From UHGV virus genome UHGV-0120184: 14,793 bases of DNA. One strand, 5' to 3'. The stretch comes from a virus. Positions within the stretch are counted from its first letter, which is position 1, and each line of letters starts with the position of its first letter. Below are positions 1 to 14,753 of the stretch, piece by piece. Made by a program: the position numbers and the translations under genes. Under the pieces are notes generated by a model. That model had not been told where the DNA came from, did no database searches, and saw only the letters and a program-made list of their open reading frames with translations.

Positions 1-2
1 CC

Positions 3-404: not shown

Positions 405-407
405 ACA

Positions 408-440
408 GCAAAAACGCCCTGACACCAGGGCGTTATTATT
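408..440. terminator. Bidirectional rho-independent terminator between convergent operons
   Basis: A 9-bp perfect stem AACGCCCTG (413-421) / CAGGGCGTT (426-434) with loop ACAC. It is preceded by an A-run (gcaaaaa) and followed by ttattattt. It lies between the stop at 404 (+) and the gpU stop at 440 (-). Confidence 0.7.
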
Positions 441-913: not shown

Positions 914-915
914 TC

Positions 916-3747
916 CTAATCACGATCGCGGAAACTGTTCATACCGCCGGATTGTCTGCGAATTTCTTCCCGTACCGCCTCCCCCACCATTCTGGCAAGG
1001 TCGCGAGGGTTCTGCGTAACCACGTTGTGAAGGTGAACATGAATATCACCACCGTACACAGGCGGCGGTTCAGGAGAGCGCGAAGGCCCCCGGGGTGTCG
1101 GGGACACCGGATCCCACCGCTTAACCTCCACAGGACGGGAAGAATCCGGGGAAACCGCCGGAGACACAGGCGAAAACGCTGGCATAAGCGGAAGCCCGGG
1201 TGCAACAGTCGGTTCATTCCACTGCCCGCGAACAGCCAGCGCACGGGGGAGATTTTTAAACACGATATCGCCAGGACCGATACGCTTGCGGGCTTCCTGA
1301 AGCATACCCGACGTATTACCCTCGATACCTTTGAGCCTGCGAAGAACGCCACTGGTGCCGTCGTTTATGACAGAAGGCTTGCCACCATTATTACCTTTAT
1401 CATTGCCATCAACTGGCTTAGCGGGCGAGATAATGGCATTAACATCCCCCTGAAGCAGGGAGAGCTTGCCCTGAAGAAGCGAAGCCCGCTGTGCATCCTC
1501 CAGTTTCCGGCGCGCCCTTTCAGCTTCATCAGGCAGCACGCCAAGCTTTTCCAGTACCCAGGCAAGTCCATCCATCAGCGCCTTCAGCGGCGTAAGCGCA
1601 AGCGATATCGCCCCACTAAGTACACGACCGAAGCTTTCTCCCGCAGACGTACACCGTTCAAGAGATTCGTTGCTGGCCTGAACAGGCGTGAGTAACCGGG
1701 TAAACCAGTCAAACACCGTGGACACCGCACCCGACACCAGATCAAACAACGGCGCAAACTGAGCAATACTTTCACGAACAGGCGCAAGGCCAGCCCACAG
1801 CGACCGGAATGTGCCGAGCATGAACGCCTTAACCTGTTCCCAGTGACGCCATATGAGCAGCGCCCCACCGGCAAGAGCAGCAATCACGAGACCAACAGGA
1901 CTGAGAAGACCGGAAAGCACCCCGCCCAGCACAGAAACCGCACCGGAGACCATCCCCCACAGTGCCGGAAGGCCGGACAGGCGAAGAGCAAGACCACCAA
2001 CACCGTTTGTAAGCGAGGATAGCCCGCCACCAAGAAGCGCAGAGCCAAGCTGAAGTTTTGCAAAAATCCCCGTCAGTAACCCACCTCCGACAGACAACGC
2101 ACCAATGGCCGTTGTGGCCGCAAGCACGCCACCCACGGTAAGGGTCAGCGTGCGTACAAGCTGCGGGTTTTCCTGAACCCACGACCTGAAGCGTTCACCC
2201 ACAGAAGCAACAGCCTGTACAAGCTCGCGGATATCATCAGTAACCAGCGACACAACATCACTGCGAATACCGGAGAAAATGCCGGACAGACGATCGGTGT
2301 CGCCGCCGAGGTTGTCACGCAGAACATCCCCCATTCGCCGGGCGGTTCCCTGAACCAGCCCCATACGGTCAGATACCGTTGCAAGCGACCGGAGAAAATC
2401 CGGGATCTGGTCAACAGCCAGATCTTCAATGGGTGTGCCGAACAGCGCTATCGCCGCATTGGCCCGTTCTGCAGGATCCTGAATCTGTAACAGACCTGAC
2501 GCGGTGCGACGCATCGCTTCACGCGCGGCCGCGCCGCCACTGGCGATCGCTGACGACATTCTTTCAGCGTTAAGGCCAATCAGCTCATAGGCTTCAACGC
2601 TGGATTTGGACATATCCGAGCCGCGAATACTGAATTCTTTGACAGCATCGCCGGTTTTATCCAGGGCGAATTTCCCCTGCTGCGCCATGCTGACAAGCAG
2701 CGTCATGGTTTCAGAGCCGGATAGCCCCATATTGCGGAAATGCGTGGAATACTCATGCAGAATTTCAGGAAGTTCGCCGCGCATTTCGGCAGACATTTTC
2801 TGCATCCCTGCCGCCATCAGGTCGACGGCCTCACCTGCATTTGCGGCAAGCCCGTTTTTCAGCATAATGCCAGCAGCCTGAACCTGTTCAGCCACATTAC
2901 CGCCGGTGACCTGAGCAAGATCGATTGCCTGCCGTGTCACCCTTTCCAGTTCTTCAGTCCCTACGGTACCCAGTGCGCCAAGCGTGCTTTGCGCCGCAGC
3001 TGCTGCTTCCGAAATCATCGCGATATCCGTGGCCGCACCTGACGCACGGATGCTCTGAATCATACGGCTGTAGCGCTGGCCGTCTTCTGCGCTGCCGCCA
3101 CTCTGTGCCGCAATGAGCGCACCCTGCCGTTGCTCTTCAACAACAGGTGCAACCGCGCGACCGGCAGCATACAGACCGGCACTGCCAGCCGCCATGGCAA
3201 CAGCACCGCGCTGACTGAGCTTACCGGCAATATCCTGAACACGGTCATAGCGTTGCTGCGCCTGCGTGACGCGTGCAAGCTGGCCCCGCTGGCGTTCGAG
3301 CTGATCGTTGTATTCCTGCGTCCGCCTGATTGCCCTCTCGACCGCACGGTTACTTCCGTCCGCCCGTATACCGTGAGATTCCAGTTCGCGACTGGCTTCG
3401 CTAAGTCGGGATTTGTGGAGGGAATAAACCGTATTAAGGCGATCAATCTTCACAGTCAGCGAGCGTATAGCTTCCTGCTGTTTTTCCGTTAGTGTTGTGC
3501 CTGTACGCTGGGCCTCCTGGAGGCGCTGAAGTCGCGCACGCGCCTCGTTCAGACTGTTTTCAGTCGAGGTCACCTGCTGGCGGGCACGGGAAAACGCATC
3601 ACTGCTTCGCTGGAGTGACTTAAGAGCGTTCTGCGTGGAGGAAAGAGATTCGGAAAGCGCGCCGGTCATTTCCCGGGCGCGCCTGACGGGTTGAGTGAGA
3701 CGGTCGACCGCAGTAAGGGCTACACGTATCTGGAGATTATTACTCAT
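916..3747 (-). CDS. T: Tail tape measure protein (P2 gpT family), 943 aa from Met19 of the 961-codon ORF
   Basis: This is the longest ORF. It has a helical, Q/R/E-rich N-terminal half, Gly/Ala/Leu hydrophobic segments in the middle, and a position between E/E+E' and U. I prefer ATG 3747-3745 (MSNNLQIRV...) because the E+E' stop overlaps it as ATGAGTAA. Confidence 0.9.
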   Translation of the reverse strand: MSNNLQIRVALTAVDRLTQPVRRAREMTGALSESLSSTQNALKSLQRSSDAFSRARQQVTSTENSLNEARARLQRLQEAQRTGTTLTEKQQEAIRSLTVKIDRLNTVYSLHKSRLSEASRELESHGIRADGSNRAVERAIRRTQEYNDQLERQRGQLARVTQAQQRYDRVQDIAGKLSQRGAVAMAAGSAGLYAAGRAVAPVVEEQRQGALIAAQSGGSAEDGQRYSRMIQSIRASGAATDIAMISEAAAAAQSTLGALGTVGTEELERVTRQAIDLAQVTGGNVAEQVQAAGIMLKNGLAANAGEAVDLMAAGMQKMSAEMRGELPEILHEYSTHFRNMGLSGSETMTLLVSMAQQGKFALDKTGDAVKEFSIRGSDMSKSSVEAYELIGLNAERMSSAIASGGAAAREAMRRTASGLLQIQDPAERANAAIALFGTPIEDLAVDQIPDFLRSLATVSDRMGLVQGTARRMGDVLRDNLGGDTDRLSGIFSGIRSDVVSLVTDDIRELVQAVASVGERFRSWVQENPQLVRTLTLTVGGVLAATTAIGALSVGGGLLTGIFAKLQLGSALLGGGLSSLTNGVGGLALRLSGLPALWGMVSGAVSVLGGVLSGLLSPVGLVIAALAGGALLIWRHWEQVKAFMLGTFRSLWAGLAPVRESIAQFAPLFDLVSGAVSTVFDWFTRLLTPVQASNESLERCTSAGESFGRVLSGAISLALTPLKALMDGLAWVLEKLGVLPDEAERARRKLEDAQRASLLQGKLSLLQGDVNAIISPAKPVDGNDKGNNGGKPSVINDGTSGVLRRLKGIEGNTSGMLQEARKRIGPGDIVFKNLPRALAVRGQWNEPTVAPGLPLMPAFSPVSPAVSPDSSRPVEVKRWDPVSPTPRGPSRSPEPPPVYGGDIHVHLHNVVTQNPRDLARMVGEAVREEIRRQSGGMNSFRDRD

Positions 3748-4275
3748 CGTTATGATTCCCGGTTCTGACGGCCGCCCGTTCTCGCCAGGCAACCAGTTCA
3801 CCGGGAGTCATCACAAAGATTTCAGAGGGCGACCAGTGAAATACAACGGCTATATCAGCGACAATATCTTCAACGTAATCAAAAGCAAGAAGCGTTACGC
3901 GCCGCCCGCCTCCTGCGCCTTCTTCGCTGACGAGGGAAGCAAAAAACCGACTGCCACCTCGTACAGTTTAAAGAAGTCTTCCGGGCACATTGACATAAGT
4001 GCCGCGCGGCTGAGGTGAGGTTCAGTTACGCGTTCCAGAAAAATGGCGGCAGCATCAACATCGGTGTTGAACAGGTCCGTCATGCGGATCCCTCGAAGCG
4101 AGCCCACCTGACGCGCAAGCGCCCCAATCTTCACGCTGGAAACCGTCTTATTACCGCAGACAACAGGAACCCTGAGATTAACCGTGTCATTTGCGATCGC
4201 CTCTGCGTTTTCCGTGTCGCCATTCGTCACAGCATCTGTGTCATTCGTCACGATATTTTCTTCAGTCTGATCCAT
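3740..4275 (-). CDS. E+E': Tail assembly chaperone gpE+E', a -1 frameshift fusion product (about 178 aa: 112 zero-frame codons plus 66 codons in the -1 frame)
   Basis: After the slip at 3946-3940, the -1 frame stays open for 66 codons (..FASLVSEEGAGGGRRVTLLAFDYVEDIVADIAVVFHWSPSEIFVMTPGELVAWRERAAVRTGNHNDE). It ends at TAA 3742-3740, which overlaps the T start codon. Confidence 0.8.
3895..4275 (-). CDS. E: Tail assembly chaperone gpE (zero-frame product), 126 aa
   Basis: The ORF lies between the tube gene and the tape-measure gene. GGGAG sits 8 nt upstream of ATG 4275. The slippery heptamer lies near its 3' end, as in P2 E. Confidence 0.85.
   Translation of the reverse strand: MDQTEENIVTNDTDAVTNGDTENAEAIANDTVNLRVPVVCGNKTVSSVKIGALARQVGSLRGIRMTDLFNTDVDAAAIFLERVTEPHLSRAALMSMCPEDFFKLYEVAVGFLLPSSAKKAQEAGGA
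3940..3946 (-). promoter_or_regulatory. Programmed -1 ribosomal frameshift slippery heptamer T TTT TTG
   Basis: The minus strand reads GGT TTT TTG in the E frame (plus strand caaaaaa at 3940-3946). This is the heptamer known from the P2 E/E+E' chaperone pair. Confidence 0.8.
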
Positions 4276-4326
4276 TATTTTTCTCCCGGGGCAACAGGAC
4301 GCCGCCCCTGTTATCAGATTTAACTA

Positions 4327-4839
4327 TCAGCCAAGCCCCAGCATGGAGCGGGTGCGGTCAGGAAGAACATCCTTACCATCAATGCGCCAGATGAAGTTCA
4401 GCACGTCGATTTCAATAACATCGCTGTTATCAACGCTGAGCTTGTACCAGGTGCATTTCATCGCATAGGTATGTTCGGTATCTTCACCCTGTTTGGCCTC
4501 GCCCTTGTCGATTTCGACAATGCGACCACGGGCTTCAATATCGACGTACTCAATCCCTTCTTCGGAATAGTATTCACCCGAGAAGCGAACACGCACGGCA
4601 TCAATACCGGCGGCGTATTTGGCAAAGATGTGACGATCGACGCCACCAACCGCAAAGGAGAGATCCAGTGCACCATCATCAAGACCGAGATCCACCGACG
4701 CAGAGCCTGGCATCCCCGCCCCGCGATACGACTCTGTTTTACGGGTCAGTTTTGGCGGGGTAAAAGACGCCACCTTGCCCAGCTTGTTGTCACCGTCCAC
4801 AAAGACGGTAAACACACGAAGTTTTTTTGGTACGGCCAT
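4327..4839 (-). CDS. FII: Major tail tube protein gpFII
   Basis: A 170-aa ORF (MAVPKKLRVFTVFVDG...) with typical P2 FII size and position. Its ATG overlaps the sheath stop as TAATG at 4837-4841. Confidence 0.9.
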   Translation of the reverse strand: MAVPKKLRVFTVFVDGDNKLGKVASFTPPKLTRKTESYRGAGMPGSASVDLGLDDGALDLSFAVGGVDRHIFAKYAAGIDAVRVRFSGEYYSEEGIEYVDIEARGRIVEIDKGEAKQGEDTEHTYAMKCTWYKLSVDNSDVIEIDVLNFIWRIDGKDVLPDRTRSMLGLG

Positions 4840-6032
4840 TAGCTACCTCCAAGAGATGCAAAAGCAGAGCCAAAGAACTCGTCGGTAAACGTCTGATAGA
4901 GTTCCATACACTCCATCGGCGGAACAGGCGTGTATTTGTAGCGAATACGCACAATGCCCTGACGAAGACTGGTTGTGCCGTTGTCGATGATATCGAACCA
5001 GCACTCAGCCCCGATGAGTTTTCCGGCTGTCACCAGTGCATCCAGCTTTGCCTTGATAGCGCTCACGGCATCCTTAGCATTGGCAGGCGTAAGCGGTGAA
5101 TCCACTATCTGAAGTTGCGCCTCCGCAATGGTGTCAGCCAGTTGCTGCGCCGTACGTGTGTACACCTCAAAGATGTACTCCGCAGTTTCCGGCGTACGGT
5201 TACCCCAGAAACGGAAGGAGCCGTCGCCCTGGTGAATAAGAGTGGTCACCTCGCTATTGTTCAGCGTGTTGGCATCGCTGTTTTCATCCTGAAGTGACCA
5301 GGAAACAGACGCTGACACCCCAAGAACATTTTTCACAGGCATGTTAGAAAGGGAGCGATGCCAGCCCTGTTCATGGTCGAGTCGGGCACGAAGACCGCAC
5401 GCATACGCCGCAGCCGGGAAGGTTTCGTTTTTACCGGACACCGGGTTGAACGCAATGAAATCAGGCCACAGAAGCATGATTTCGCGACCGGAAATCTTTT
5501 TACGGAACGCAATAGCATCGGACGGTTTTGTGCAGCCAGGGCAGCCGGAATACGCAAATGCGCGCATTTTTCCGGCAACAGTCACCAGTGCAGCCGTGAC
5601 AGCATCCGATTCAAGGCCCGGAGCGGCAAGAATGCGGGGTCGGTAACCAATACCTTCCATCTGTTCGGCAACCAGAAGCGCCTGCATACCGCTGTAGCTT
5701 CCGTCTTCTTCCGTGGTACCAATGACCAGTTGATCCTGTGTTTTATTCTCAGCCCCCTCTTTTGCCGCCTCCACGCGAACGACAATCACCCGTGTACTGA
5801 CCTGGTCAGATATCGCTTTAAGGGCCTTATAAAGCGTGCCCGCTTTCCCGGCCTTCCCCAGAACAGAAGATACACGGGTAATCAGCACAGGCTTGTTAAG
5901 GGGGAACTGCCCGGTATCCGCATCATCTGCAACGGCAACAATACCAATGACGCTGGAATCAACGTCATTAATGGCCGTCACAAGGTCGGTATTCTCCGTG
6001 ACGCGCACACCGTGAAATCGTTTTTCAGCCAT
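4839..6032 (-). CDS. FI: Contractile tail sheath protein gpFI (397 aa from MAEKRFHGVRVTE)
   Basis: Strong resemblance to P2 FI: HGV.V.E near the N-terminus, FPLNKPVLIT, GW H.SLSN, TTLI...G.FRFWGNRT, YTRTAQ, and Y.YTPVPP near the C-terminus. I prefer the internal ATG 6032 over 6044, based on GGTGA upstream and alignment to the P2 N-terminus. Confidence 0.92.
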   Translation of the reverse strand: MAEKRFHGVRVTENTDLVTAINDVDSSVIGIVAVADDADTGQFPLNKPVLITRVSSVLGKAGKAGTLYKALKAISDQVSTRVIVVRVEAAKEGAENKTQDQLVIGTTEEDGSYSGMQALLVAEQMEGIGYRPRILAAPGLESDAVTAALVTVAGKMRAFAYSGCPGCTKPSDAIAFRKKISGREIMLLWPDFIAFNPVSGKNETFPAAAYACGLRARLDHEQGWHRSLSNMPVKNVLGVSASVSWSLQDENSDANTLNNSEVTTLIHQGDGSFRFWGNRTPETAEYIFEVYTRTAQQLADTIAEAQLQIVDSPLTPANAKDAVSAIKAKLDALVTAGKLIGAECWFDIIDNGTTSLRQGIVRIRYKYTPVPPMECMELYQTFTDEFFGSAFASLGGS

Positions 6033-6084
6033 ACGATTCACCATCAGTTGTGTTTATGCTCGCCTGAATAATCCACCATTGGCG

Positions 6085-6125
6085 CACAGCCCTCACCTGA
6101 TGCGGGCTGTGGGGATTTTTTTACA
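6085..6125. promoter_or_regulatory. Divergent late-promoter region: a TGT-N12-ACA dyad (6108-6125) overlapping a GC-rich hairpin plus T7 run
   Basis: TGT(6108-6110)-ggggattttttt-ACA(6123-6125) matches the dyad reported for Ogr-dependent P2 late promoters. It sits between the divergent FI (start 6032) and D (start 6186) genes. The same DNA forms the stem CACAGCCC (6085-6092) / GGGCTGTG (6104-6111), followed by ggga and TTTTTTT (6116-6122). Confidence 0.4.
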
Positions 6126-6185
6126 ACAGAGCCGGACAGAAACGACAAGGTACGCGTGGGATGATACGCACACGGGAGGGATATC

Positions 6186-7331
6186 ATGAGCATCACTGAA
6201 TCAGTAACACATCACATCAACAGCGCACTGGATGCAGCGGAAGATACCGTTAGGGTGCCAGACTTCACTATCACACTGGAAGGGAAAGATGCCAGCCTGA
6301 AGAACATCACGCAGCGCATCATGAGCCTGACCATGACAGACAACAGGGGTTTTGAGGCTGACAGGGTGACACTGGAAATCGACGACGCCGACGGCGGGGT
6401 GGTACTTCCGGAGCGCGGAACACGATTATCGCTGGCGATGGGATGGAAAGGTGAAAGCCTCACTCGCAAGGGGGCGTTTGTGGTGGACGAAGTGAGCCAC
6501 GAAGGTCCGCCGGATAAGCTGACCATATCCGCGAACAGTGCGGATTTTCGCGAAGAGTTTAACGTGAAACGCGAAGTCTCCTGGCATGACGTGACCGTTG
6601 AGCGTGTGGTATCTGCCATCGCGCACCGTTACGGACTGAAAGCACAAATCAGCGAAATGCTGATGAATATCGAAATCGACCATGCAGACCAGACAGAGGA
6701 AAGCGACATCTCGTTCCTCACGCGTATGGCTGACATGCTGGGTGCAATAACCACCGTAAAAAACGGGTGCCTGCTGTTCATTCTGCCGGGTGGCGGTGTG
6801 ACAGCCAGCGGGCGCGCCCTCCCCTCATTCGCCCTGACCCGCTCGGATGGCGACAGTCATCGCTTTCGCATTGCTGACAGAAAAGCCTATACCGGAGTGA
6901 AAGCTTACTGGCTGGATTTAAAGTTCGGCCAGAAGAAGGCCGTGAACGTGAAAAAGCGAAACGCGAAAACCACACAGAAGCCGGAGAAAAGCAGTTCACG
7001 GGAGGGTGGATACATGGAAGGCGCAGAAGGCAATGTGTATGTGCTGAGAAAAACCTACCCGAACGAAGAAGCCGCGCGTCGCGCAGCTGCCGCACGCTGG
7101 CAGCAACTTCAGCGGGGTGCAGCAGAATTCAGCATCACGCTGGCGCGCGGACGCGCCGACCTGTATCCGGAGATGCACGGCACGGTATCCGGGTTCAAGA
7201 GCGACATTGACAATCAGGACTGGATTATTTCGCGCATTGAGCACGTCATCGACGACAGCGGCTTCACCACCAGACTGGAGCTGGAAGCAAAAATCGCAGA
7301 CTGGATAGCAGAGCGCGCCACGACTGGCTAG
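6186..7331 (+). CDS. D: Phage late control/tail protein gpD
   Basis: A 381-aa ORF with GGGAGGG upstream. It contains the P2 gpD motifs LTMTDNRGFEAD, GWKG, F.VDEV.H.G.PD...I.A.SADF, SWHD, VTASG, ITRSDGD.H.F.IADR.AYTGV.A.W, QRG.AEFSI.LA.GRAD.Y and SGFK..ID.QDW.I..V.H...SGFTT.LELE. Confidence 0.93.
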   Translation: MSITESVTHHINSALDAAEDTVRVPDFTITLEGKDASLKNITQRIMSLTMTDNRGFEADRVTLEIDDADGGVVLPERGTRLSLAMGWKGESLTRKGAFVVDEVSHEGPPDKLTISANSADFREEFNVKREVSWHDVTVERVVSAIAHRYGLKAQISEMLMNIEIDHADQTEESDISFLTRMADMLGAITTVKNGCLLFILPGGGVTASGRALPSFALTRSDGDSHRFRIADRKAYTGVKAYWLDLKFGQKKAVNVKKRNAKTTQKPEKSSSREGGYMEGAEGNVYVLRKTYPNEEAARRAAAARWQQLQRGAAEFSITLARGRADLYPEMHGTVSGFKSDIDNQDWIISRIEHVIDDSGFTTRLELEAKIADWIAERATTG

Positions 7332-7372
7332 AATGAGCGCGAGCCCACCCCGTTTCAGCCAGGGGGACCATC

Positions 7373-7675
7373 ATGCATCCTTGCCCATACTGCGGAGCAA
7401 GTACCCGCACCAGAACAAGCCGCGACGCCAACGATACAGGAACAATCAGGGAGAAATATTACCAGTGCAACAACATTGAATGCAGCGCCACCTTTGTGAC
7501 GCACGAGTTTGTCGTGAGAACCGTATGCCGTCCGCAACCCACCGAAGAACGGGGAGTCGTCCCCGCAGACGCTTTCAAATCATGCCACCGGGGAAGGGAT
7601 CAACTCAGCCTCCCCCTGGGCGATTGCGCCTCCCAGTCAAAAACTGTACATTACGCGCGGGTGCCTTTCGGCTGA
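7373..7675 (+). CDS. ogr: Ogr/Delta-type zinc-finger late transcription activator, with a C-terminal extension relative to the ~72-aa P2 Ogr
   Basis: MHPCPYCG...(22 residues)...CNNIECSATF reproduces the CxxC-N22-CxxxxC Ogr finger (P2: CPLCQ...CQNVNCSATF). GGGGGA lies upstream of the ATG. The gene follows gpD directly, as in P2. Confidence 0.88.
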   Translation: MHPCPYCGASTRTRTSRDANDTGTIREKYYQCNNIECSATFVTHEFVVRTVCRPQPTEERGVVPADAFKSCHRGRDQLSLPLGDCASQSKTVHYARVPFG

Positions 7676-7805
7676 CGGCTGGAAGGATTACCTGAAGGCC
7701 GGATGTGGAAAGGCCCCGGAAAACATCTCTGTTTAGCCGAGGCCCTAATCTACATATCTTTAGCAAGTAGAAGGTTAGCGCCTCTTTGAAAAAGGAGCAA
7801 GCGCT

Positions 7806-7946
7806 ATGCCGCAAAAAACGATCATCGTGAGCATTTTATGCTTAACCATGTTGTTGACCGTCTGGATGATACATCGTTCACCATGTGAATTCAGACTTAA
7901 CATCATGTGGTCAGAATTTGCGGCGTTCTTGCAGTGTAAACCGTAA
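7806..7946 (+). CDS. Hok/Gef/PndA-family type I toxin-like small membrane peptide (46 aa), below the ORF-track length threshold
   Basis: The translation is MPQKTIIVSILCLTMLLTVWMIHRSPCEFRLNIMWSEFAAFLQCKP. AGGAG lies 8 nt upstream. It has an N-terminal TM helix followed by S.CE.R and ..AAF. Compare PndA (MPQRT...VWMVRDSLCGLRL) and Hok ([21 protein letters not shown]), both recalled from memory. Confidence 0.7.
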   Translation: MPQKTIIVSILCLTMLLTVWMIHRSPCEFRLNIMWSEFAAFLQCKP

Positions 7947-8041
7947 GAAACCGCAGCGGGGGTGAAAGCCCCCGCTATCCGGTTGCCGAAGGTTCGGTCG
8001 AAAGCCGCACCCGTGCATGCAAGTGACAAAGAAAAAACAAA

Positions 8042-8071
8042 GCCCGCAGCGTAAAAACTGCGGGCTTTTTT
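8042..8071 (+). terminator. Rho-independent terminator closing the hok-like transcription unit
   Basis: Stem GCCCGCAG (8042-8049) / CTGCGGGC (8058-8065) with an 8-nt loop, followed by TTTTTT (8066-8071). The A-rich run upstream (8031-8041) could let it work on the minus strand too. Confidence 0.75.
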
Positions 8072-8112
8072 ATTCACATACCGAAGGTGTGGTAACTGCC
8101 TGGGTTCAGACC

Positions 8113-8136
8113 AAAAAAAGCCCCATAAAATGGGGC
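8113..8136 (-). terminator. Rho-independent terminator on the minus strand
   Basis: Stem GCCCCA (8120-8125) / TGGGGC (8131-8136) with a 5-nt loop. On the minus strand it is followed by TTTTTTT (complement of the A-run 8113-8119). It lies about 300 nt downstream of the minus-strand AT-rich operon. Confidence 0.55.
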
Positions 8137-8432
8137 TGAAGATTCTGTAAGGAATTTCACAGCAATGAGATTCTAGTCTCTTCCAATGATATATGAGTCT
8201 TCAGCCTGAATCAATGGGGCATGACTGTGAATCCACCGACGATCAAAACTTGCACAATGCCTGAAGTTGAGTTAGAAAAGTACCGGGCGCGATATCCGGT
8301 TTATTTTTTGTTGCTGTGTTTTGCCTCGTGCCGGATATCGCGTCCACCGTTTTTCTGATGATTCTTATGAAATCGTACTTTATTGATTTACTGCCATCCT
8401 GGTTTGTCTTTTTATGTTCATTATTGCGACAG

Positions 8433-8828
8433 TCATTTCCTGTTTCTGGTGATGTTTTGATAAAAGTGAAAGAATAAAACGATCATTGCAGAAGGTATTG
8501 CTAAAACCATACATATCATTATATAAACAAGATGAAAATGATATATACCATAAGACCAGAAAAAAGGTTTTTTCCAGAATGATATGGATGTGTATTTTAG
8601 TGTAATTGTTTTTGTCAGGTATATTGAACAAGGAAGAGCCAGGCCACTGAGTATCAGAAATAAGTCAACTTTTATCGATGCTTCTGTTGGTGTGTCATAT
8701 ATAAGATGCAATATGGATATTATAATGGGGCACATTCCCCACAGGATATTTTTGAAATAGAATTTCCGGTTCATATGTTTATGCTCTTTGGTTTTATCCC
8801 GGGAATTGGCGCTTTGTTTTTTATTCAT
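8433..8828 (-). CDS. Small integral membrane protein (131 aa, about 4 predicted TM segments), function unknown
   Basis: Hydrophobic segments include ILWGMCPIIISILHLIY, LFLILSGLALPCSIYL, FFWSYGIYHFHLVYIMICMVLAI and PSAMIVLFFHF. Its ATG (8828-8826) overlaps the upstream stop as ATGAATAA. Composition is very AT-rich. Confidence 0.6.
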   Translation of the reverse strand: MNKKQSANSRDKTKEHKHMNRKFYFKNILWGMCPIIISILHLIYDTPTEASIKVDLFLILSGLALPCSIYLTKTITLKYTSISFWKKPFFWSYGIYHFHLVYIMICMVLAIPSAMIVLFFHFYQNITRNRK

Positions 8829-9492
8829 GAACGTTTTCGTTGTTTAATAACCATGGGGTATTATGATTATCCTTTATTTTTGATATGTAATTGTCAATAG
8901 TGGATTTCGTTTCATTATTGTGGTTATAGTAATCATGAAGAGTGCAAAACACATCATCTTTTATTGTGGCGATTAATGGGGCTTGTGTGAGGGTAAAATA
9001 TAAAGAACGATTACTTAGTGTCCTGAAATAAATTTTTTCGCCAATGACCAGATCGGTGTTCATTATATTGTAGCCTATTTCAAATATATTGTTTGATGGC
9101 ATGTGTAATACATATGTGGGGTATTTGTTGTGTTTTTTCATTAAATAATAAATAAAATCAGATACAGGCATCTGTTTTAGTTTTTTTTGCATCTTCCTTA
9201 TGTGTTGTGACATTAATATCATTTTCGAGAGAATGCATAAGAGACTAAACAAGAGATTAAATACTATGTTCAGTACTATCAGAGTAACAAACAGGCCAAT
9301 GCTCCTTAGCGCTGAAAATATATTGTCATTGTAAATATACTGGAATGTATATCCGGCTGATAAAAATGCCAATATATATAACACTATGTCTGTTTTATTT
9401 CGCTTTTTTATTTTGTAGGTTATTGCTGATTTTAAGAATAAGATGGCAATAAGAGCAGTGATAACCCAGAAAAATATAACGGAAACTTCCAT
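8821..9492 (-). CDS. Membrane-anchored protein (223 aa: three N-terminal TM segments plus a soluble C-terminal domain of about 125 aa), function unknown
   Basis: The TM segments are VIFFWVITALIAILFL, IVLYILAFLSAGYTF and LFVTLIVLNIVFNLLFSLLCIL. An N/K/Y-rich domain follows. AAAGG lies 7 nt upstream of ATG 9492. This is the first gene of the two-gene operon. Confidence 0.6.
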   Translation of the reverse strand: MEVSVIFFWVITALIAILFLKSAITYKIKKRNKTDIVLYILAFLSAGYTFQYIYNDNIFSALRSIGLFVTLIVLNIVFNLLFSLLCILSKMILMSQHIRKMQKKLKQMPVSDFIYYLMKKHNKYPTYVLHMPSNNIFEIGYNIMNTDLVIGEKIYFRTLSNRSLYFTLTQAPLIATIKDDVFCTLHDYYNHNNETKSTIDNYISKIKDNHNTPWLLNNENVHE

Positions 9493-9542
9493 AATTATAC
9501 CTTTATCGTGTTTTCAGGGAGGTAATTTATCATTGTGCTGAT

Positions 9543-9562
9543 ATGCATGTAAATACATGCAT
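9543..9562. promoter_or_regulatory. Perfect 20-bp palindrome ATGCATGTAAATACATGCAT in the leader of the AT-rich operon (operator or 5'-UTR hairpin candidate)
   Basis: Two 9-bp arms ATGCATGTA / TACATGCAT separated by 2 nt. The palindrome begins 51 bp upstream of ATG 9492. Confidence 0.4.
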
Positions 9563-9694
9563 TATCTGTTTCTTATATTCTTTTTATGAAGTTACTGATT
9601 AATTTATATTAAAACAACACATTCATAATGAAATCAACATGTTCATATGGTTGACGGCAGATTTCTCTTTTTGTTAACCTGCATCTGCATTAAC

Positions 9695-9939
9695 TGTCGC
9701 TTCGGCGACCACCAATGTTCCATAGTGGCCTGTGAGGAACGCCTTCGGGTGGCCCATGTCGCTCCGGCGACCACCAATGCTCCATATGACCTGTGAGGAG
9801 CGCCTTCGGGTGGTCAGTTTTACACCTCCGTAGCCTGAAAGGAGCTGTGAGTACTGAAGGGAAACATCCCTGATGTATGGGCAAATCTGCACACCTTTGA
9901 GAGCAGATGTCACTACGGTTTTACGTGATGATGAAGGCA
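9695..9939. repeat. Direct repeat copy A (245 nt) containing tandem units 9696-9757 (62 nt) and 9758-9817 (60 nt)
   Basis: It aligns base-for-base with 12489-12733 and differs by 3 T/C transitions (9702, 9878, 9914). The shared motif taac lies just upstream of both copies. Confidence 0.95.
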
Positions 9940-9941
9940 TT

Positions 9942-9971
9942 CCGGATTCCGTTCCGGTACTTTTATTTTTT
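9942..9971 (+). terminator. Small rho-independent terminator immediately 3' of repeat copy A
   Basis: Stem CCGGA (9942-9946) / TCCGG (9953-9957) with a 6-nt loop, then tac and TTTTATTTTTT (9961-9971). The stem is short, so confidence is modest. Confidence 0.45.
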
Positions 9972-10117
9972 CTCAGCAGACAGGCATAAAAACGCCTTTA
10001 AAATCTGCGTCTTAAGATATTTTCTGACTTTCCGCATGAGCTTCTTATGACTGTGCGCACGGCATAAGACCATTTGAAATTTGGTCGCTTGCGTGTGCAT
10101 GTGGAGTTTGAAGCTGT

Positions 10118-10163
10118 GCGGCGTCACTTGCGTGCGACCGAAGGGAACACCAAGTGACGCCGC
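10118..10163. other. 13-bp perfect inverted repeat (long hairpin) in the 743-nt untranslated region upstream of the recombinase gene
   Basis: GCGGCGTCACTTG (10118-10130) / CAAGTGACGCCGC (10151-10163) with a 20-nt loop. A second composite hairpin lies at 10285-10320. Confidence 0.6.
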
Positions 10164-10682
10164 GGCCATCTGCCCTGAAGGCAGCATCACGTAAGGTCTG
10201 GCAGAAAATCGTCGCTCGTGACAAGCGTCCTGATGCTCGTTTTGTCGCTCTGACAACGTCTTTCGGTGACGTATCCACGCCTTTCCGGCGCGTCCGTTTT
10301 CACACGGACGGCCACGCCGGAATGTCTTCTTAAACTTCGTAATACATGAGAGGTAAGTGTATTAACTGACTGAAATAAAGGAATAAAAATGAAAAATCGT
10401 TCTGATGTCGGGAGGCGTCATCGTAAGGTGACGGGGAGTATTCCTCAACAATCGCCCTGGTGCACAGGTAGCGAACTCCTGTAAGAACTCAACATGTGCA
10501 AGCTCTGCTACATCGACATCAAACGAGCCAGGAAGGCGAACAACCGCGTTACAGAGCCGTCCGTGATGACGAAAAACTAACAATATCAACGAACTTTTCT
10601 GTTTACCGGAAGGGCTGCGTATGCAGTTTTACTTTGTGAACGGAAGGGGGCTGCATCTGATTTTTACAGGGAGAATGACTTT

Positions 10683-11600
10683 ATGGCCCGGAAATCGTCA
10701 CGTTCTAAAGTTGAACTGTTTCGCAAGTCTTTCATCTCACTTGCCCGTGAGTGTGGTGGCAGTTACGCAACAACAGCTGACAGAATGAGAATTGCAAAGT
10801 ACTTCCTGAATTATTTACGTGAAAATGGAATTAAACTTCGCCAGACGAGCAGTATTAAAACCAGACATATTTCTGGTTACCTTCTCAGCAGGAAAGCAGC
10901 GGGTATTTCTCACCGGACTATTCAGAATGAACGGGCGGTTATGCGTGCCATTTTAGAAAAAGATGGACGACTTAAAATCGCAGATCCTTCTAACCCATTA
11001 TTGAGTAATGAAGCGCTCGGCCTAAAGGATACATGCCGTGATGGAAAGAAAATAGCATTGTCACCGGATGAATTCTGGAAAGCATTTGCTAAAGTGGAAA
11101 AAAAGAATCCTGGTGTGGCAGCTGCAATGCAGCTTTCTTATGTTCTGGGTTTAAGAACAAAAGAAGCCGTTCAGTCATGTAAGTCTGTTCAGTCATGGCT
11201 ACGGGAACTGAATTCAGGGTGCGATTCTCTTTCGGTCGTTTTTGGTACGAAAGGTGGAAGACCAAGAAATACCACAATTATTGACAGAGATGCGGTAAGA
11301 CATGCTTTGCTTTATGCTCAAAAAATAATGGATGAACACGACGGAAAACTTATTGACCGTCCAAATATAAAACAGGCTATCAATGTTTTTCGTTATCATG
11401 CCCGTAAAGCGGGATTGTCAGGAGTGAAATCTCCGCACAGTATGCGTTATCATTTTTCTCAGGAAGCCAGAAAATTTTATCGAAAAAATGGATATGGAGA
11501 GTCGGAAATCTACGCTCGTGTTTCTATGGATCTTGGCCATGGTGACGGAAGAGGTCGTTATGTAAAACAGGTTTATTTTAACGGTTCTGATGAAAGTTGA
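10683..11600 (+). CDS. Tyrosine recombinase / integrase-like protein (305 aa) with a SAM-like N-terminal domain
   Basis: The full catalytic signature is readable: R in YVLGLRTKEA, K in FGTKGGRPR, H-x-x-R in HSMRYHF, H in LGHGDGRG, and candidate nucleophile Tyr in GRYVKQVY. It resembles the proteobacterial family annotated as integrase domain-containing protein (from memory, not searched). Confidence 0.8.
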   Translation: MARKSSRSKVELFRKSFISLARECGGSYATTADRMRIAKYFLNYLRENGIKLRQTSSIKTRHISGYLLSRKAAGISHRTIQNERAVMRAILEKDGRLKIADPSNPLLSNEALGLKDTCRDGKKIALSPDEFWKAFAKVEKKNPGVAAAMQLSYVLGLRTKEAVQSCKSVQSWLRELNSGCDSLSVVFGTKGGRPRNTTIIDRDAVRHALLYAQKIMDEHDGKLIDRPNIKQAINVFRYHARKAGLSGVKSPHSMRYHFSQEARKFYRKNGYGESEIYARVSMDLGHGDGRGRYVKQVYFNGSDES

Positions 11601-11603
11601 TAT

Positions 11604-12341
11604 TTAAAATGAATCTGGAGGATATGTGTTTTTGTTAATTTCGGTTATGATGATTTCTGATGCGCGATTACACATATCTTCATCAAAATACCCAATATGA
11701 CATTCATGAATGTGACAATTCAGTTTTCTGGATAGCCATATATTTGCCTCGTTACGGGATATGTTGGCTCTTTGCTGATAATTGTCAAAAAGTTTACGTA
11801 CTTTTGTTCTGAGTATTCTCAGGTTTTCTTTAGCCGGAGTACCTAATGGTCTTCCTGAGTTTTTATGGCATCCAACCCATGCATTGCATGGGGGACAAAT
11901 CCAGTAATATTTGTTTTCTGTCGCGGCTGAAATGGAAAATGGCATGAGAGCCCCTTTTATAAGATTCGTCTTATTTCCACAGTATGGGCAGATAACAATT
12001 GGTCGGACATCTGCAATATTCAGTGATGTATAAGTCAGTCGTTCATTTTTAACGATGTTTCTCTTTCCGCAATGGGTGAGAACATGCTTTATTGTATCTA
12101 ATTCTTCTCGTAGTATTTTGGAACTGACGCCAGTGCGATAACGTTGTTGAAAATAGCATTCAATATGACGTAGTTTTATGCTATTTGCTGAGCTTATCTG
12201 TATATTGGCATCTTTAAGAAATGAAGCAAGTCTTCTGGCTCTTCCCGTATATACCAACATATCTTCTGGCGTCGGGGCGCATGCTTTGGCTATTCTGAGT
12301 AGTTCATCTTTTAATTTTTTGTATTTCGATTTCATTTTCAC
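11604..12341 (-). CDS. Recombinase N-domain paralogue fused to a Cys4 zinc ribbon (245 aa); no catalytic domain
   Basis: Its N-terminal part aligns with the N-terminal part of the 305-aa protein: NSIKLRHIECYF vs SSIKTRHISGYL, and GVSSKILREELDTIKHVL vs GISHRTIQNERAVMRAIL. The C-terminal half has CPYCG..(29 residues)..CPPCNAWVGCH, then RPLGTPA..LR..R. This resembles the zinc-ribbon family I recall as DUF3268 (needs an HMM check). Confidence 0.7.
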   Translation of the reverse strand: MKMKSKYKKLKDELLRIAKACAPTPEDMLVYTGRARRLASFLKDANIQISSANSIKLRHIECYFQQRYRTGVSSKILREELDTIKHVLTHCGKRNIVKNERLTYTSLNIADVRPIVICPYCGNKTNLIKGALMPFSISAATENKYYWICPPCNAWVGCHKNSGRPLGTPAKENLRILRTKVRKLFDNYQQRANISRNEANIWLSRKLNCHIHECHIGYFDEDMCNRASEIIITEINKNTYPPDSF

Positions 12342-12488
12342 ATCTCTCTTACAGGTTCATAAAGAGTGTTACTGAATTAAAAAATATCAAATTGAGCTGG
12401 CCTTGTCAGTCAGCTGTAGGTTATTACCATAGCCACGACAACAACTTGAAGTTTTATGTTGTTTATGATTATATTTTAGACGCTAACT

Positions 12489-12733
12489 TGTCGCTCCGGC
12501 GACCACCAATGTTCCATAGTGGCCTGTGAGGAACGCCTTCGGGTGGCCCATGTCGCTCCGGCGACCACCAATGCTCCATATGACCTGTGAGGAGCGCCTT
12601 CGGGTGGTCAGTTTTACACCTCCGTAGCCTGAAAGGAGCTGTGAGTACTGAAGGGAAACATCCCTGATGTACGGGCAAATCTGCACACCTTTGAGAGCAG
12701 ATGTCACCACGGTTTTACGTGATGATGAAGGCA
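12489..12733. repeat. Direct repeat copy B (245 nt) containing tandem units 12490-12551 and 12552-12611
   Basis: Same orientation as copy A, with 242 of 245 positions identical by manual alignment. Confidence 0.95.
12489..12733 (+). ncRNA. Candidate structured ncRNA or leader, copy B
   Basis: Same structure as copy A. There is a sigma70-like TTGAAG (12446-12451), an 18-nt spacer, then TATATT (12470-12475). This predicts a start within a few nt of the repeat's 5' boundary. No terminator follows this copy. Confidence 0.4.
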
Positions 12734-12866
12734 CTTTGTATACAATGTGACTATGAGTTGTCTCTGGTCTTCTTAAGCGCATCGTGCTGACGCATTGATG
12801 TGTTCACCTGACGGATTTTCCAGTCCGTCAGGGCGGAACGTCCGTCTTTTTCATTCGGAGGTTCCG

Positions 12867-13268
12867 ATGTTTATACCACTTTTGTTACGTGCAGATATGC
12901 GCATAACGCCTTTCTTTCATCTTCTCAGACAATGTCTGTTTAATCAGAAGCGTTGTGTTCACCCACAACAGCCCTGGTCCGCTCCACAACTGAGGCATCT
13001 GTACTGCACTCCGTGGTTTATTAACGCCACCGGCAATCTGTCAGTCAGAGCCTGCATTGTTTCCACCAACGGTGCATTGCGACACTGCTTTGAGTTCCGT
13101 GAAGGCTCTCACAGCCGTGAATATCGTTACTGGTTTGAGGCACTTCCGCTGTCTGTCGTGCGGTTTAATGTCTTTACCGGTCGAATATCTGCTCGCCGCA
13201 CGCTTTCTGCTGCCTCCCGTATGGCCGTGCAGCTTACTTCTTTTCGCTATCGCTTCGGTCTTCGCTGA
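12867..13268 (+). CDS. Hypothetical basic, Cys/Trp/Arg-rich protein (133 aa from the internal Met); coding status doubtful
   Basis: GGAGG lies 5 nt upstream of ATG 12867. A hairpin (13278-13296) follows the stop. The composition is odd and the region is hairpin-rich, so it may be non-coding. Confidence 0.3.
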   Translation: MFIPLLLRADMRITPFFHLLRQCLFNQKRCVHPQQPWSAPQLRHLYCTPWFINATGNLSVRACIVSTNGALRHCFEFREGSHSREYRYWFEALPLSVVRFNVFTGRISARRTLSAASRMAVQLTSFRYRFGLR

Positions 13269-13379
13269 AGCCTGTTGAACGGTCGTCATGACCGTTGAAA
13301 GGTTTATCACACAACGCCCGGATCTGTCTGACCGTACCACGCGTGCGCGATGACAAATCTGAGTTTTCCTTAACCCGTC

Positions 13380-13417
13380 CGGGACCGCTCCCGTTCGGGG
13401 ACGGTCCCGCTGTTTTT
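13380..13417 (+). terminator. Strong GC hairpin plus T5 run immediately upstream of the next gene's RBS (terminator or attenuator)
   Basis: CGGGACCG (13380-13387) / CGGTCCCG (13402-13409), with an inner UCCC-GUUC-GGGG helix. It is followed by ctgTTTTTa. AGGAG at 13421-13425 and ATG 13433 follow. Confidence 0.55.
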
Positions 13418-13432
13418 ATCAGGAGATTGTTT

Positions 13433-13813
13433 ATGGGACTCGATATTTTTTTCCTTGGGCGTGATCGTGTTACCGACGCGGTAGTATCGGTACCGGAAAC
13501 GCGGGAAGTGGGTTACTTTCGCAAGGTTAACCCACTGATTGCCTGGTTTGAGACGCATTGTGGACCGGTTGAAAATGCCGTGGAGCGTCCGGTTTCCAGA
13601 ACGGAACTGGAGGCACTACTGAGCGATCTTGAATGCCTTACGCCGGAGAACTGCCGGGAATTCTTCCCCACAACAGAAGGATTCTTTTTTGGTTCTCAGG
13701 AGTATGACCAGTATTACTGGAAGGATGTTGAGATCGTGAAATCGTGGGTCAGAAGCACGCTTGATTCGTTTGATTTTGAACGAAAAATACTGTTGCTCTG
13801 GGCATGGTGGTAA
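13433..13813 (+). CDS. Hypothetical protein (126 aa, MGLDIFFLGRD...LLLWAWW)
   Basis: I chose the internal Met of the 13295..13813 ORF because AGGAG lies 7 nt upstream and the upstream part is occupied by the hairpin/terminator. A terminator follows. A remnant paralogue of its C-terminus lies at 14434-14508. Confidence 0.65.
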   Translation: MGLDIFFLGRDRVTDAVVSVPETREVGYFRKVNPLIAWFETHCGPVENAVERPVSRTELEALLSDLECLTPENCREFFPTTEGFFFGSQEYDQYYWKDVEIVKSWVRSTLDSFDFERKILLLWAWW

Positions 13814-13851
13814 TTATTTTTCTGTCCTTGTTTTTAACCTTATTACCCTGT

Positions 13852-13896
13852 CGGGAACATGTGTCCCGTAGGGCAGGTGTGTTCCCGTAATTTTTT
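13852..13896 (+). terminator. Rho-independent terminator after the 126-aa gene
   Basis: CGGGAACA (13852-13859) / TGTTCCCG (13880-13887) followed by taaTTTTTT (13888-13896). An alternative inner pairing uses TGTCCCG. Confidence 0.55.
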
Positions 13897-13913
13897 GTAT
13901 CTGAGGTGAACAC

Positions 13914-14393
13914 ATGAATAGTCTGTTAATACTCCTTTACGTTGTTGTATGCCGTGCCTGCACCATTCTTCGGGTAATCGCACCAGTGTCGTCTGTCCGT
14001 GCGTGGTGTGAGTATCAACTGGAAGGTATGACGATACTTCGTGATGCGTACAGCTCGCTGGCTAAGGCGGCTGGAATGCAGAATGATGCATTTGAATATC
14101 TTGAAAGTATTGCTCGTCATCTGGGCTACGAAAGCGGTGGTGACCAACTGAAATCAGGACTTTTCCGGCCGTTTCTGTGGCATATACGTGCGAAAGGCCA
14201 CAGGCTGGGAGCTGTCATGGAAATGGCGGTATGGCAGGCATGGAAGAATGGCTGTAACGATGTCTGCAATCCATGGGAGGATGTCTACAATCCATGGGAC
14301 CGTGGATGGAACGATGGCTGGACTGAATGTCTGGATCAACGTATAGCCGGTCTCCTGAAGGCGGTCTGTATTGACTTTTCCGACGCCGACTGA
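13914..14393 (+). CDS. Hypothetical protein (159 aa) with a hydrophobic N-terminus and a W/N/P-rich C-terminal segment (CNPWEDVYNPWDRGWNDGW)
   Basis: GAGGTG lies 5 nt upstream of ATG 13914. I recognise no family. Confidence 0.5.
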   Translation: MNSLLILLYVVVCRACTILRVIAPVSSVRAWCEYQLEGMTILRDAYSSLAKAAGMQNDAFEYLESIARHLGYESGGDQLKSGLFRPFLWHIRAKGHRLGAVMEMAVWQAWKNGCNDVCNPWEDVYNPWDRGWNDGWTECLDQRIAGLLKAVCIDFSDAD

Positions 14394-14433
14394 ACGGTTT
14401 TTCTTTTACTTACTGTACCGTGTACCTGCGTCG

Positions 14434-14508
14434 GTGGCGTGGGTCAGCGATACGCTGAAGACGTTTGATTTTGAGCGTCATTCACTGGTGATGCTGGCGT
14501 TGTGGTAA
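14434..14508 (+). pseudogene. Remnant of a paralogue of the 13433..13813 gene (C-terminal ~24 codons only)
   Basis: The translation VAWVSDTLKTFDFERHSLVMLALW* matches VKSWVRSTLDSFDFERKILLLWAWW* at the end of the 126-aa protein. The frame is open only from 14359 and has no start codon. Confidence 0.55.
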
Positions 14509-14600
14509 GTCCGGCCAGTCTGATTTTCGTTATTAATTTAACCGTATGGTGCATGTTCACCGTACGGGGAGCATGCATCTTTTTTATGGAGCGTGCTCTT

Positions 14601-14753
14601 ATGAAAACGAAAAAACATACTTCATGTCCCGTGAACAAAACCCCGGAGCGTGACCTGTATCAGCTGGTGACGGACAGGGTGATTGAGGCCATCGAAAAGG
14701 GCGTAGCCCCCTGGCAACGTCCATGGCGCTCAGTACGGTGTCAGCGCCAGTGA
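14601..14753 (+). pseudogene. ArdC-like (DUF1738-type) anti-restriction/ssDNA-binding protein, N-terminal ~50 codons only; truncated
   Basis: MKTKKHTSCPVNKTPERDLYQLVTDRVIEAIEKGVAPWQRPW matches the hallmark DLYQ.VT..II..LE.G..PW..PW N-terminus. A stop occurs at 14751-14753, whereas full-length proteins are about 300 aa. No frame continues to the window edge. Confidence 0.5.

Follow-up and report, generated by a model that had tools for sequence, protein, structure and literature searches.

What does a protein do that joins the DNA-binding domain of a tyrosine recombinase to an unrelated zinc finger, and whose gene lies tail to tail with a gene of the recombinase type? The question is raised by the UHGV virus genome UHGV-0120184, of which a stretch of 14,793 nucleotides (referred to below as the window) was analyzed. 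A reading made from the sequence alone had described the protein as a catalytically dead recombinase paralogue, and had proposed that it acts as a directionality factor, a regulator or a competitor of its neighbor. The gene has been annotated in RefSeq without a function, and its two Pfam domains are on record in the protein database. We examined its domains, its neighbor, the adjacent non-coding DNA and its occurrence in other genomes, and suggest that the protein may be an accessory factor in DNA transfer.

Domain structure of the zinc-finger protein

The gene occupies positions 11604–12341 on the minus strand, as given by the ORF call, the Pfam matches and an identical gene in RefSeq. The ORF begins with a GTG at 12341 and encodes 245 amino acids. 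The identical RefSeq gene of E. coli JE86-ST05, with the product name 'zinc-finger-containing protein', starts at an ATG two codons downstream (window position 12335), giving 243 amino acids, and this ATG is probably the start codon. Residues 9–96 (12054–12317, minus strand) match the core-binding (CB) domain Phage_int_SAM_2 (PF12834, E = 9.2e-12, 45.8 bits against a cutoff of 22). Residues 116–231 (11649–11996, minus strand) match DUF3268 (PF11672, E = 5.3e-27, 95 bits against a cutoff of 28.4) over model positions 3–118 of 121, and comprise a four-Cys zinc ribbon, a GCH...CH motif and a three-helix bundle. An AlphaFold2 model of the whole protein (pLDDT 93.2) has the four-helix CB fold, which together with the score above the Pfam gathering threshold places the N-terminal domain among the CB domains of tyrosine recombinases. 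In the same model residues 113–245 form the zinc ribbon and helices, with three strands and three helices (pLDDT 93).

The motifs CPYCG, CPPC, GCH and RPLGTPA..LR..R, picked out by the sequence-only reading, are real features of the family. Residues C118, C121, C149 and C152, G157-C158-H159 and C214-H215 are invariant or nearly so among 100–107 sequences, and the helix residues P165, G167, A170, L174 and R175 are likewise conserved in at least 100 homologues. The C-terminal 130 residues thus correspond to a full-length DUF3268 protein of the stand-alone kind found in phages, plasmids and ICEs, with all conserved Cys, His and helix residues; the stand-alone proteins differ in being typically single-domain proteins of 120–180 amino acids, to which the window protein adds the CB domain.

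Profile searches of both convergent genes' products, as that reading had proposed, gave significant Phage_int_SAM_2 matches for the N-termini (E = 9.2e-12 and 1e-23), and BLASTP aligned the two N-termini with 24% identity over 126 columns (E = 8e-9). The similarity claimed for the first 100 or so residues therefore holds. No match to Phage_integrase or Integrase_1 was found by Pfam in the 245-aa protein, and neither a competent nor a degenerate R-K-H-R-H/W-Y domain is present; as had been claimed, the zinc ribbon stands where the catalytic domain would be, and the protein cannot catalyze recombination. The description as a dead recombinase paralogue is right as to the CB domain, which is truly paralogous, but 'dead' overstates the case, since there is no degenerate catalytic domain.

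The CB half is more similar to the N-terminal domains of Integrase_1 proteins of other clades (33–38% identity, E ~1e-11) than to that of its own neighbor (24%), and is therefore an old paralogue derived from the PF12835 enzyme family, which did not arise by recent duplication of the adjacent gene. The two halves are each basic (CB half, pI 10.0; DUF3268 half, pI 8.95) and evolve under purifying selection. Compared with an E. coli allele of 82.5% identity, dN/dS was 0.14 for the whole gene (CB half 0.18, zinc-finger half 0.12). Similar values were obtained against two relatives at ~54% identity, the CB half ranging from 0.13 to 0.18 in the three comparisons. Because dN/dS is low in both, neither half is a decaying remnant, and the idea of a decaying pseudogene for the CB half was ruled out. 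A PDB search by sequence with the zinc-finger profile gave no solved structure, and the viral structures matching the protein were all uncharacterized.

The neighboring enzyme belongs to the family of MpsA

The convergent gene (10683–11600, plus strand; assigned by Pfam, residues and hhalign) encodes a protein of 305 amino acids with Phage_int_SAM_2 (E = 1e-23) and Integrase_1 (PF12835, E = 3.6e-53, 180 bits) domains. R158, K190, H252, R255, H286 and Y293/Y298 are invariant in 22 homologues. PF12835 has been used as the signature of 'DTR-like' integrases in a classification of genomic islands, with mpsA of Salmonella Genomic Island 1 (SGI1) as an example (PMC10484663), and MpsA of SGI1 is a tyrosine-recombinase-like atypical relaxase (PMC6414798).

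For comparison, an SGI1-like contig with MpsA was found in metagenomes through the published mpsA primer; the published primer for SGI1 had no match in the E. coli collection. MpsA of this contig scored above the PF12835 cutoff (42.7 bits against 23). The Integrase_1 profile built from 22 sequences aligned to MpsA with an hhalign probability of 94.4% (E = 9e-8) over 171 columns, including the N-terminal domain, and BLASTP of MpsA against the window enzyme gave E = 1e-5, around a common GTKGGRxR motif. In tblastn, MpsA recovered the Integrase_1 genes of four related loci (L006, L022, L025 and L032) over 184–322 residues. A PDB search with the partner-integrase profile returned noise only.

The partner thus combines homology to MpsA with retention of the catalytic residues, as expected of an MpsA-type relaxase. 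Its sequence places it in the PF12835 family of MpsA, whose one characterized member acts in DNA transfer, and on the same grounds it is probably a MOB_M (MpsA-like) conjugative relaxase of an MPF_G element and not a conventional integrase. It resembles the MOB_M relaxases MpsA, MobK and TcpM in its PF12835 domain and catalytic residues, and in its location, next to an MPF_G transfer operon and preceded by conserved non-coding DNA. It differs in that the PF12835 enzymes of the window and related loci are only ~25–38% identical to MpsA, and in that, compared with MpsA (Nowak et al.), the window enzyme has a clear CB domain of its own. MOB_M relaxases have been reported to be abundant in chromosomes and often misannotated as integrases; 44% of them go with MPF_G elements, and the oriT of MOB_M elements is flanked by the transfer operon on one side and the relaxase gene on the other (10.64898/2026.01.13.699239). 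An MPF_G plasmid of Pantoea, on which MOB-suite recognized no relaxase, carries a PF12835 protein. SGI-4, another MPF_G ICE, has a TraI-type relaxase in its annotation (PMC6543542), which leaves room for a recombinase role of the PF12835 protein.

Genomic setting and a candidate oriT region

E. coli JE86-ST05 has a chromosomal integrative conjugative element with transfer genes of the TIGR037xx/PFL_4xxx type (MPF_G), and positions 7639–14738 of the window match part of it at 99.7% identity. Left of 7639, genes for P2-like tail proteins and for an Ogr/Delta zinc finger take its place in the window. In JE86-ST05, the last part of the transfer operon (TraG_N), then an L31 paralogue and hok, come directly before the gene pair, which is followed by an array of small genes in the same direction that leads to ArdC and DUF1281. 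The zinc-finger gene is on the strand opposite to this surrounding array.

The enzyme gene is accompanied by structured non-coding elements. Two copies of a 245-nt direct repeat (D1), 99% identical to each other, lie on the plus strand at 9695–9939 and 12489–12733, each containing the Rfam motif STAXI (RF01728) at 9695–9868 (78.2 bits) and 12489–12662 (75.5 bits), respectively; the second copy is divergent from the zinc-finger gene. The motif EFASI (RF02957, 72.3 bits against a gathering score of 51.2) lies at 10397–10525 on the plus strand, 158 nt upstream of the PF12835 gene, a position unchanged in every related locus. Between the first repeat copy and EFASI is a non-coding stretch (9940–10396, plus strand) recognized by its sequence conservation. 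STAXI is an acronym of 'Ssbp, Topoisomerase, Antirestriction, XerDC Integrase' (PMC2864571) and EFASI of 'Enterobacteriaceae, Frequently Around STAXI and Integrases' (as quoted in a passage of PMC12370729). From these names, the order STAXI, EFASI, integrase is an already known association; neither text names the zinc-finger partner. The sequence-only reading had mentioned an RNA motif linked to DUF3268 in Clostridia. An RNA motif of the name 'DUF3268' has indeed been described (PMC10573300); the window does not contain it, its RNA motifs being the two STAXI copies and EFASI.

The non-coding region is distributed more widely than the enzyme. The stretch 9940–10396 is ~90% identical in the 82.5% allele and in two small plasmids of E. 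coli (3.1 and 5.3 kb), which lack a relaxase and consist of little more than a rep gene. These plasmids carry the entire STAXI-spacer-EFASI sequence at ~90% identity, up to just before the start codon of the enzyme, and the 3.1-kb one, p3, is from strain 64.1, whose chromosome has an element with both genes. Window positions 9600–10133, which include the 5' part of the conserved stretch, occur in ~590 E. coli genomes lacking the enzyme, mostly O157, O26, O111, O121 and O145. Some part of the STAXI-EFASI region is present in 668 E. coli genomes, compared with 73 with the enzyme. The cis region thus spreads independently of the enzyme gene. Tellurite-resistance islands of O157:H7 have been described as oriT-only hitchers of a MOB_M element (10.64898/2026.01.13.699239), and the ~590 enzyme-less genomes fit this statement. 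We infer that the STAXI-EFASI non-coding region is a candidate oriT.

This would give the orphan motifs STAXI and EFASI a testable role, perhaps as oriT region and as a transfer RNA, and such a role would account for the many STAXI-bearing islands and tiny plasmids without a relaxase.

We also considered that the 99%-identical 245-nt repeats delimit a cassette integrated by recombination between two STAXI copies. This was rejected as a general feature, as the copies differ from each other elsewhere and no 'empty' form with one STAXI was seen.

Linkage of the fusion gene to PF12835 genes

Among 5,426 complete E. coli genomes, a PF12835 gene was found in 73, of which 51 have the zinc-finger gene as well and 22 have the enzyme only; the zinc-finger gene occurred without a PF12835 gene in none. 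All fusion clades that could be placed lie within 2 kb of a PF12835 gene, always in conjugative elements of the MPF_G type. The zinc-finger gene is thus strictly linked to PF12835 genes, and the possibility that the two families never co-occur outside the window, which would have told against a functional pair, falls away: the fusion accompanies a PF12835 gene in every clade placed. As a control, nine distant loci with stand-alone DUF3268 genes from other phyla were inspected, and none (0/9) had a PF12835 gene within 6 kb. These nine were all that the profile scan of genome contigs returned, with no fusions among them.

The earlier remark that the two genes converge with 3 nt between their stop codons and no terminator was borne out. 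The stop codons are at 11598–11600 and 11604–11606, the spacer is 11601–11603, a consensus scan found no terminator-like site between the genes, and folding of the junction is unremarkable (z = −0.6). The same 3-nt gap is present in the 82.5% allele (locus L021). Convergent pairs were also observed in a K. oxytoca locus (39-nt gap) and a metagenome scaffold (10-nt gap), both from the group at 53–55% identity, and in clade P0013 (<50% identity, 44-nt gap). In clade P0012 (<50% identity), the fusion gene is upstream of the unit formed by STAXI, EFASI, the PF12835 gene and the second STAXI, on the strand of the enzyme and with one gene between. The nearest stand-alone DUF3268 gene (P0160 of Salmonella, 43% identical to the C-terminal half) occupies the same slot of the element beside the same unit, upstream of the first STAXI and on the opposite strand. 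The convergent 3-nt layout is therefore no defining feature, as the gap is 10–44 nt elsewhere or the gene is upstream, on either strand.

The STAXI-EFASI-PF12835 gene-STAXI unit itself is constant in the related loci, barring three: the K. oxytoca locus L003, with no STAXI over the threshold, and L005 and L025, short contigs that cut the unit. The two flanking STAXI copies are usually unlike each other in the other loci. The zinc-finger gene either follows the enzyme gene within the unit or lies a short way outside. In ~4 E. coli strains it is broken into two ORFs, and truncated forms occur in several clusters of the protein database, so at least some elements can do without the protein.

Upstream of the zinc-finger gene, the consensus scan gave a promoter-like site, CTGACA-17-TATTTT with TG (12381–12409, minus strand); such sites are no more frequent in the region than expected from shuffled sequence.

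Comparison with MpsB of SGI1

The arrangement recalls that of SGI1, in which MpsB, a CB-like protein of 98 amino acids, is encoded one codon past mpsA and is essential for transfer, and in which oriT is a GC-rich region of 125 bp with inverted repeats, located close upstream (PMC6414798). Between oriT and mpsA lies the gene of a small RNA that is likewise essential (PMC9299015). Both systems have a separate CB-like domain without a catalytic domain, encoded directly after a PF12835-family gene (one codon in SGI1, 3 nt in the window), and both have a structured non-coding region and a small-RNA-like element ahead of the enzyme gene. No EFASI or STAXI homologue was found in the mobilization region of SGI1, and the likeness of EFASI to the sgm small RNA is therefore positional only.

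The layout of a non-catalytic CB-like protein directly beside a PF12835/MpsA-family gene is thus shared, with a difference in strand: mpsB is on the strand of mpsA, in an operon, whereas the zinc-finger gene is on the opposite strand. MpsB has 98–99 amino acids and no zinc finger, whereas the window protein has DUF3268; and MpsB is essential for transfer of SGI1, whereas the window-type protein is missing from many related elements. Alignment of the N-terminal domain to MpsB gave an hhalign probability of 5.5% (E = 0.007) over 44 columns in CB helices 3–4, and BLASTP gave E = 0.058; MpsB itself matches no Pfam family above threshold. The parallel is best described as a resemblance in design and not as family membership. 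A literature search found nothing on the CB-DUF3268 fusion, its linkage to PF12835 genes or the parallel with MpsB. If the partner is a MOB_M relaxase, this would add a second, structurally different case to that of SGI1, the only one known in which a relaxase is paired with a separate core-binding protein.

Occurrence of DUF3268 and its fusions

A profile search over 1.84 billion representative sequences (E ≤ 1e-10, clustered at 50% identity) yielded 3,570 clusters, a count that may include some matches to the CB half of the query profile. In the best 150 of the ~3,570, all but a few are stand-alone DUF3268 proteins of 120–180 amino acids. The CB fusion was found in only ~5 clusters at 50% identity (P0003, P0012, P0013, P0016 and the window's own); other fusions join a YqaJ exonuclease to DUF3268, DUF3268 to DUF7173, or two DUF3268 domains in tandem. 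DUF3268 is also present in 561 phage genomes, virulent and temperate, in unrelated contexts; in Salmonella virus VSiA it is an insert on the opposite strand within the tail module. We found no functional literature on the DUF3268 protein family. The CB and YqaJ fusions suggest that DUF3268 acts on DNA in reactions of the recombination or transfer type, and are a first contextual clue to the role of this very large family.

Possible functions of the zinc-finger protein

With somewhat less than even confidence, our analysis favors the CB-DUF3268 protein as an MpsB-like accessory protein of the relaxosome, equipped with an extra DUF3268 module. It would be a non-catalytic DNA-binding subunit of the adjacent PF12835 enzyme. 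Its CB domain would either recognize sites like those of the enzyme within the STAXI-EFASI region, the candidate oriT, or sit next to the enzyme on that DNA; the basic DUF3268 module would make a further contact, with nucleic acid or protein; and the two proteins together would help to assemble or tune the nicking complex, as MpsB does for MpsA. In this scheme we infer the relaxase activity of the partner, the oriT function of the region, its binding by the zinc-finger protein and an effect on transfer. A second CB protein is not obviously needed, because the enzyme has a CB domain of its own, and the fusion is missing from 22 of the 73 E. coli elements, from the Pantoea plasmid and from the Salmonella elements.

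The main competing view, which we consider unlikely, makes the PF12835 protein a genuine site-specific recombinase that might, for example, resolve multimers, or excise or invert the segment between the STAXI copies; the CB-zinc-finger protein would then occupy its core sites and serve as directionality factor, inhibitor or regulator. The partner does have all of R-K-H-R-H-Y, as a recombinase would, but relaxases keep their catalytic residues too, and MpsA, the relative studied by experiment, works in DNA transfer and not in recombination. The paralogy of the two CB domains and the TraI-type relaxase annotated in SGI-4 would also suit this view, as would the direct STAXI repeats that flank the unit in the related loci other than L003, L005 and L025. 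However, these copies usually differ from each other, STAXI is also found alone on plasmids and in the ~590 genomes, and no excised or empty-site variant, with a single STAXI and the unit gone, was found among the related loci. Known recombination directionality factors are small winged-helix proteins and not CB domains. The fold of the window protein, CB domain plus zinc ribbon plus helix bundle, is not that of a Xis/Cox-type winged-helix or HTH DNA bender, which tells against the directionality factor proposed in the sequence-only reading. Because PF12835 includes MpsA, a relaxosome accessory factor is better grounded than a directionality factor or competitor. A role as a transcriptional repressor, of the kind evolved from recombinases, is improbable. 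Its targets would be its own gene, the divergent STAXI-led array or, through convergent transcription, the PF12835 gene, and it could draw on the lack of a terminator between the two genes and on the short distance from the gene start to the divergent STAXI copy (147 nt in the window, ~520 nt in Salmonella). Yet no operator-like motif of at least 10 nt is conserved between the region upstream of the zinc-finger gene and the STAXI-EFASI region, and the position of the gene relative to the unit varies among clades. Moreover, the recombinase-derived proteins MrpR/YopR of SPbeta and SroF of phi3T have both domains of the recombinase fold, with the active site disabled, whereas the window protein keeps the CB domain only and has an unrelated zinc-finger domain in place of the catalytic one.

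It is also unlikely, in our estimate, that DUF3268 serves a general function for incoming mobile DNA, binding single-stranded or structured DNA or countering defense, with the CB domain only tethering it to the DNA of the element near the entry point in the recipient. The breadth of the family, mostly stand-alone among its best-matching clusters, its presence in virulent as well as temperate phages, the insert in the VSiA tail module, the YqaJ exonuclease fusions and the location of the zinc-finger gene beside genes of the ArdC, ArdA and SSB type are consistent with such a function. PADLOC, whose library holds defense and not anti-defense models, gave no match for the protein; the gene runs against the surrounding array; and the choice of the CB domain of the neighboring enzyme family as fusion partner would be left unexplained.

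The accessory-factor reading can be extended, more speculatively, to an undescribed relaxosome of three parts: a tyrosine-recombinase-like relaxase, a CB-DUF3268 specificity subunit and a structured nucleic acid, in which STAXI would be the oriT region or part of it, EFASI the counterpart of the SGI1 sgm small RNA, and DUF3268 a zinc-dependent binder of single-stranded or hairpin DNA or of RNA. As a whole this proposal is decidedly unlikely; if true, it would provide a first function for thousands of phage and plasmid DUF3268 proteins and explain two orphan Rfam motifs. In E. coli, Klebsiella and Salmonella, the MPF_G islands that contain this module have virulence and resistance genes as cargo.

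A candidate oriT next to the enzyme gene

The stretch at 9695-10682 comprises a STAXI RNA motif (9695-9868), a spacer of about 530 nt and an EFASI motif (10397-10525); both motifs are orphans in Rfam. Together they occupy the position expected of the oriT of a MOB_M relaxase, and we regard them as a candidate oriT for the probable MOB_M relaxase encoded by the PF12835 gene (10683-11600). With the candidate oriT on one side and the enzyme gene on the other, EFASI is positioned like the essential sgm small RNA of Salmonella Genomic Island 1 (SGI1); neither sequence nor Rfam similarity was found between the SGI1 region and the STAXI-EFASI stretch. The entire 9695-10682 stretch is also present, at ~90% identity, on two rep-only plasmids, 3.1 and 5.3 kb in size.

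The STAXI motif lies within a 245-nt repeat, the two copies of which (9695-9939 and 12489-12733) are 99% identical. Because the copies match so closely here, whereas the two STAXI copies of a closely related locus (L002) differ (133.6 and 82.1 bits), recent conversion or recombination between the repeats is suggested for the lineage of the window.

Occurrence of STAXI with and without the enzyme

The STAXI motif with its flank (9600-10133) recurs at ~92% identity in ~590 complete genomes of E. coli that lack a PF12835 gene in its vicinity, chiefly those of O157:H7, O26, O111, O121 and O145; the enzyme itself occurs in just 73. The genomes carrying the segment without the enzyme are consistent with oriT-only hitcher islands.

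STAXI was also observed on plasmids. The IncK2/Z plasmid NZ_CP029742.1, a MOBP/MPF_I conjugative plasmid, carries a copy at 3756-3913, near trbC, and no PF12835 gene was found in the stretch examined around it. About 15 large E. coli plasmids, mostly conjugative, match 10003-10114. STAXI and its flank are thus not confined to MPF_G elements.

The MPF_G plasmid pROTS050421_D of Pantoea agglomerans was typed as 'non-mobilizable' because no relaxase was recognised. It encodes a PF12835 protein with 44% identity to that of the window, and the gene is followed by an array of small genes of the kind found in the window, ending with ArdC-like and DUF1281 genes.

Flanking regions and other DUF3268 proteins

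Positions 1-7639 hold a P2-like tail module, with genes U, tape measure, E, FII and sheath on the minus strand, and gene D (6186-7331) on the plus strand, as is an Ogr/Delta zinc finger gene (7373-7675). Identity to the JE86-ST05 conjugative element begins at 7639, within the end of the ogr-like ORF, and therefore a P2-like prophage abuts or interrupts the conjugative element.

Directly upstream of the first STAXI, two AT-rich ORFs of 131 and 223 aa (8433-9492, minus strand) are predicted to encode membrane-like sequences. Neither matched Pfam or PADLOC, and the 223-aa ORF is annotated as 'hypothetical' in related elements.

Other architectures of DUF3268, the domain present in the convergent zinc-finger gene (11604-12341), include fusion with a YqaJ-like exonuclease, repetition of the domain in tandem, and fusion with DUF7173 (clusters P0208 and P0230 (434 aa); P0014 and P0015; P0082). 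These architectures may offer additional clues to DUF3268 function.
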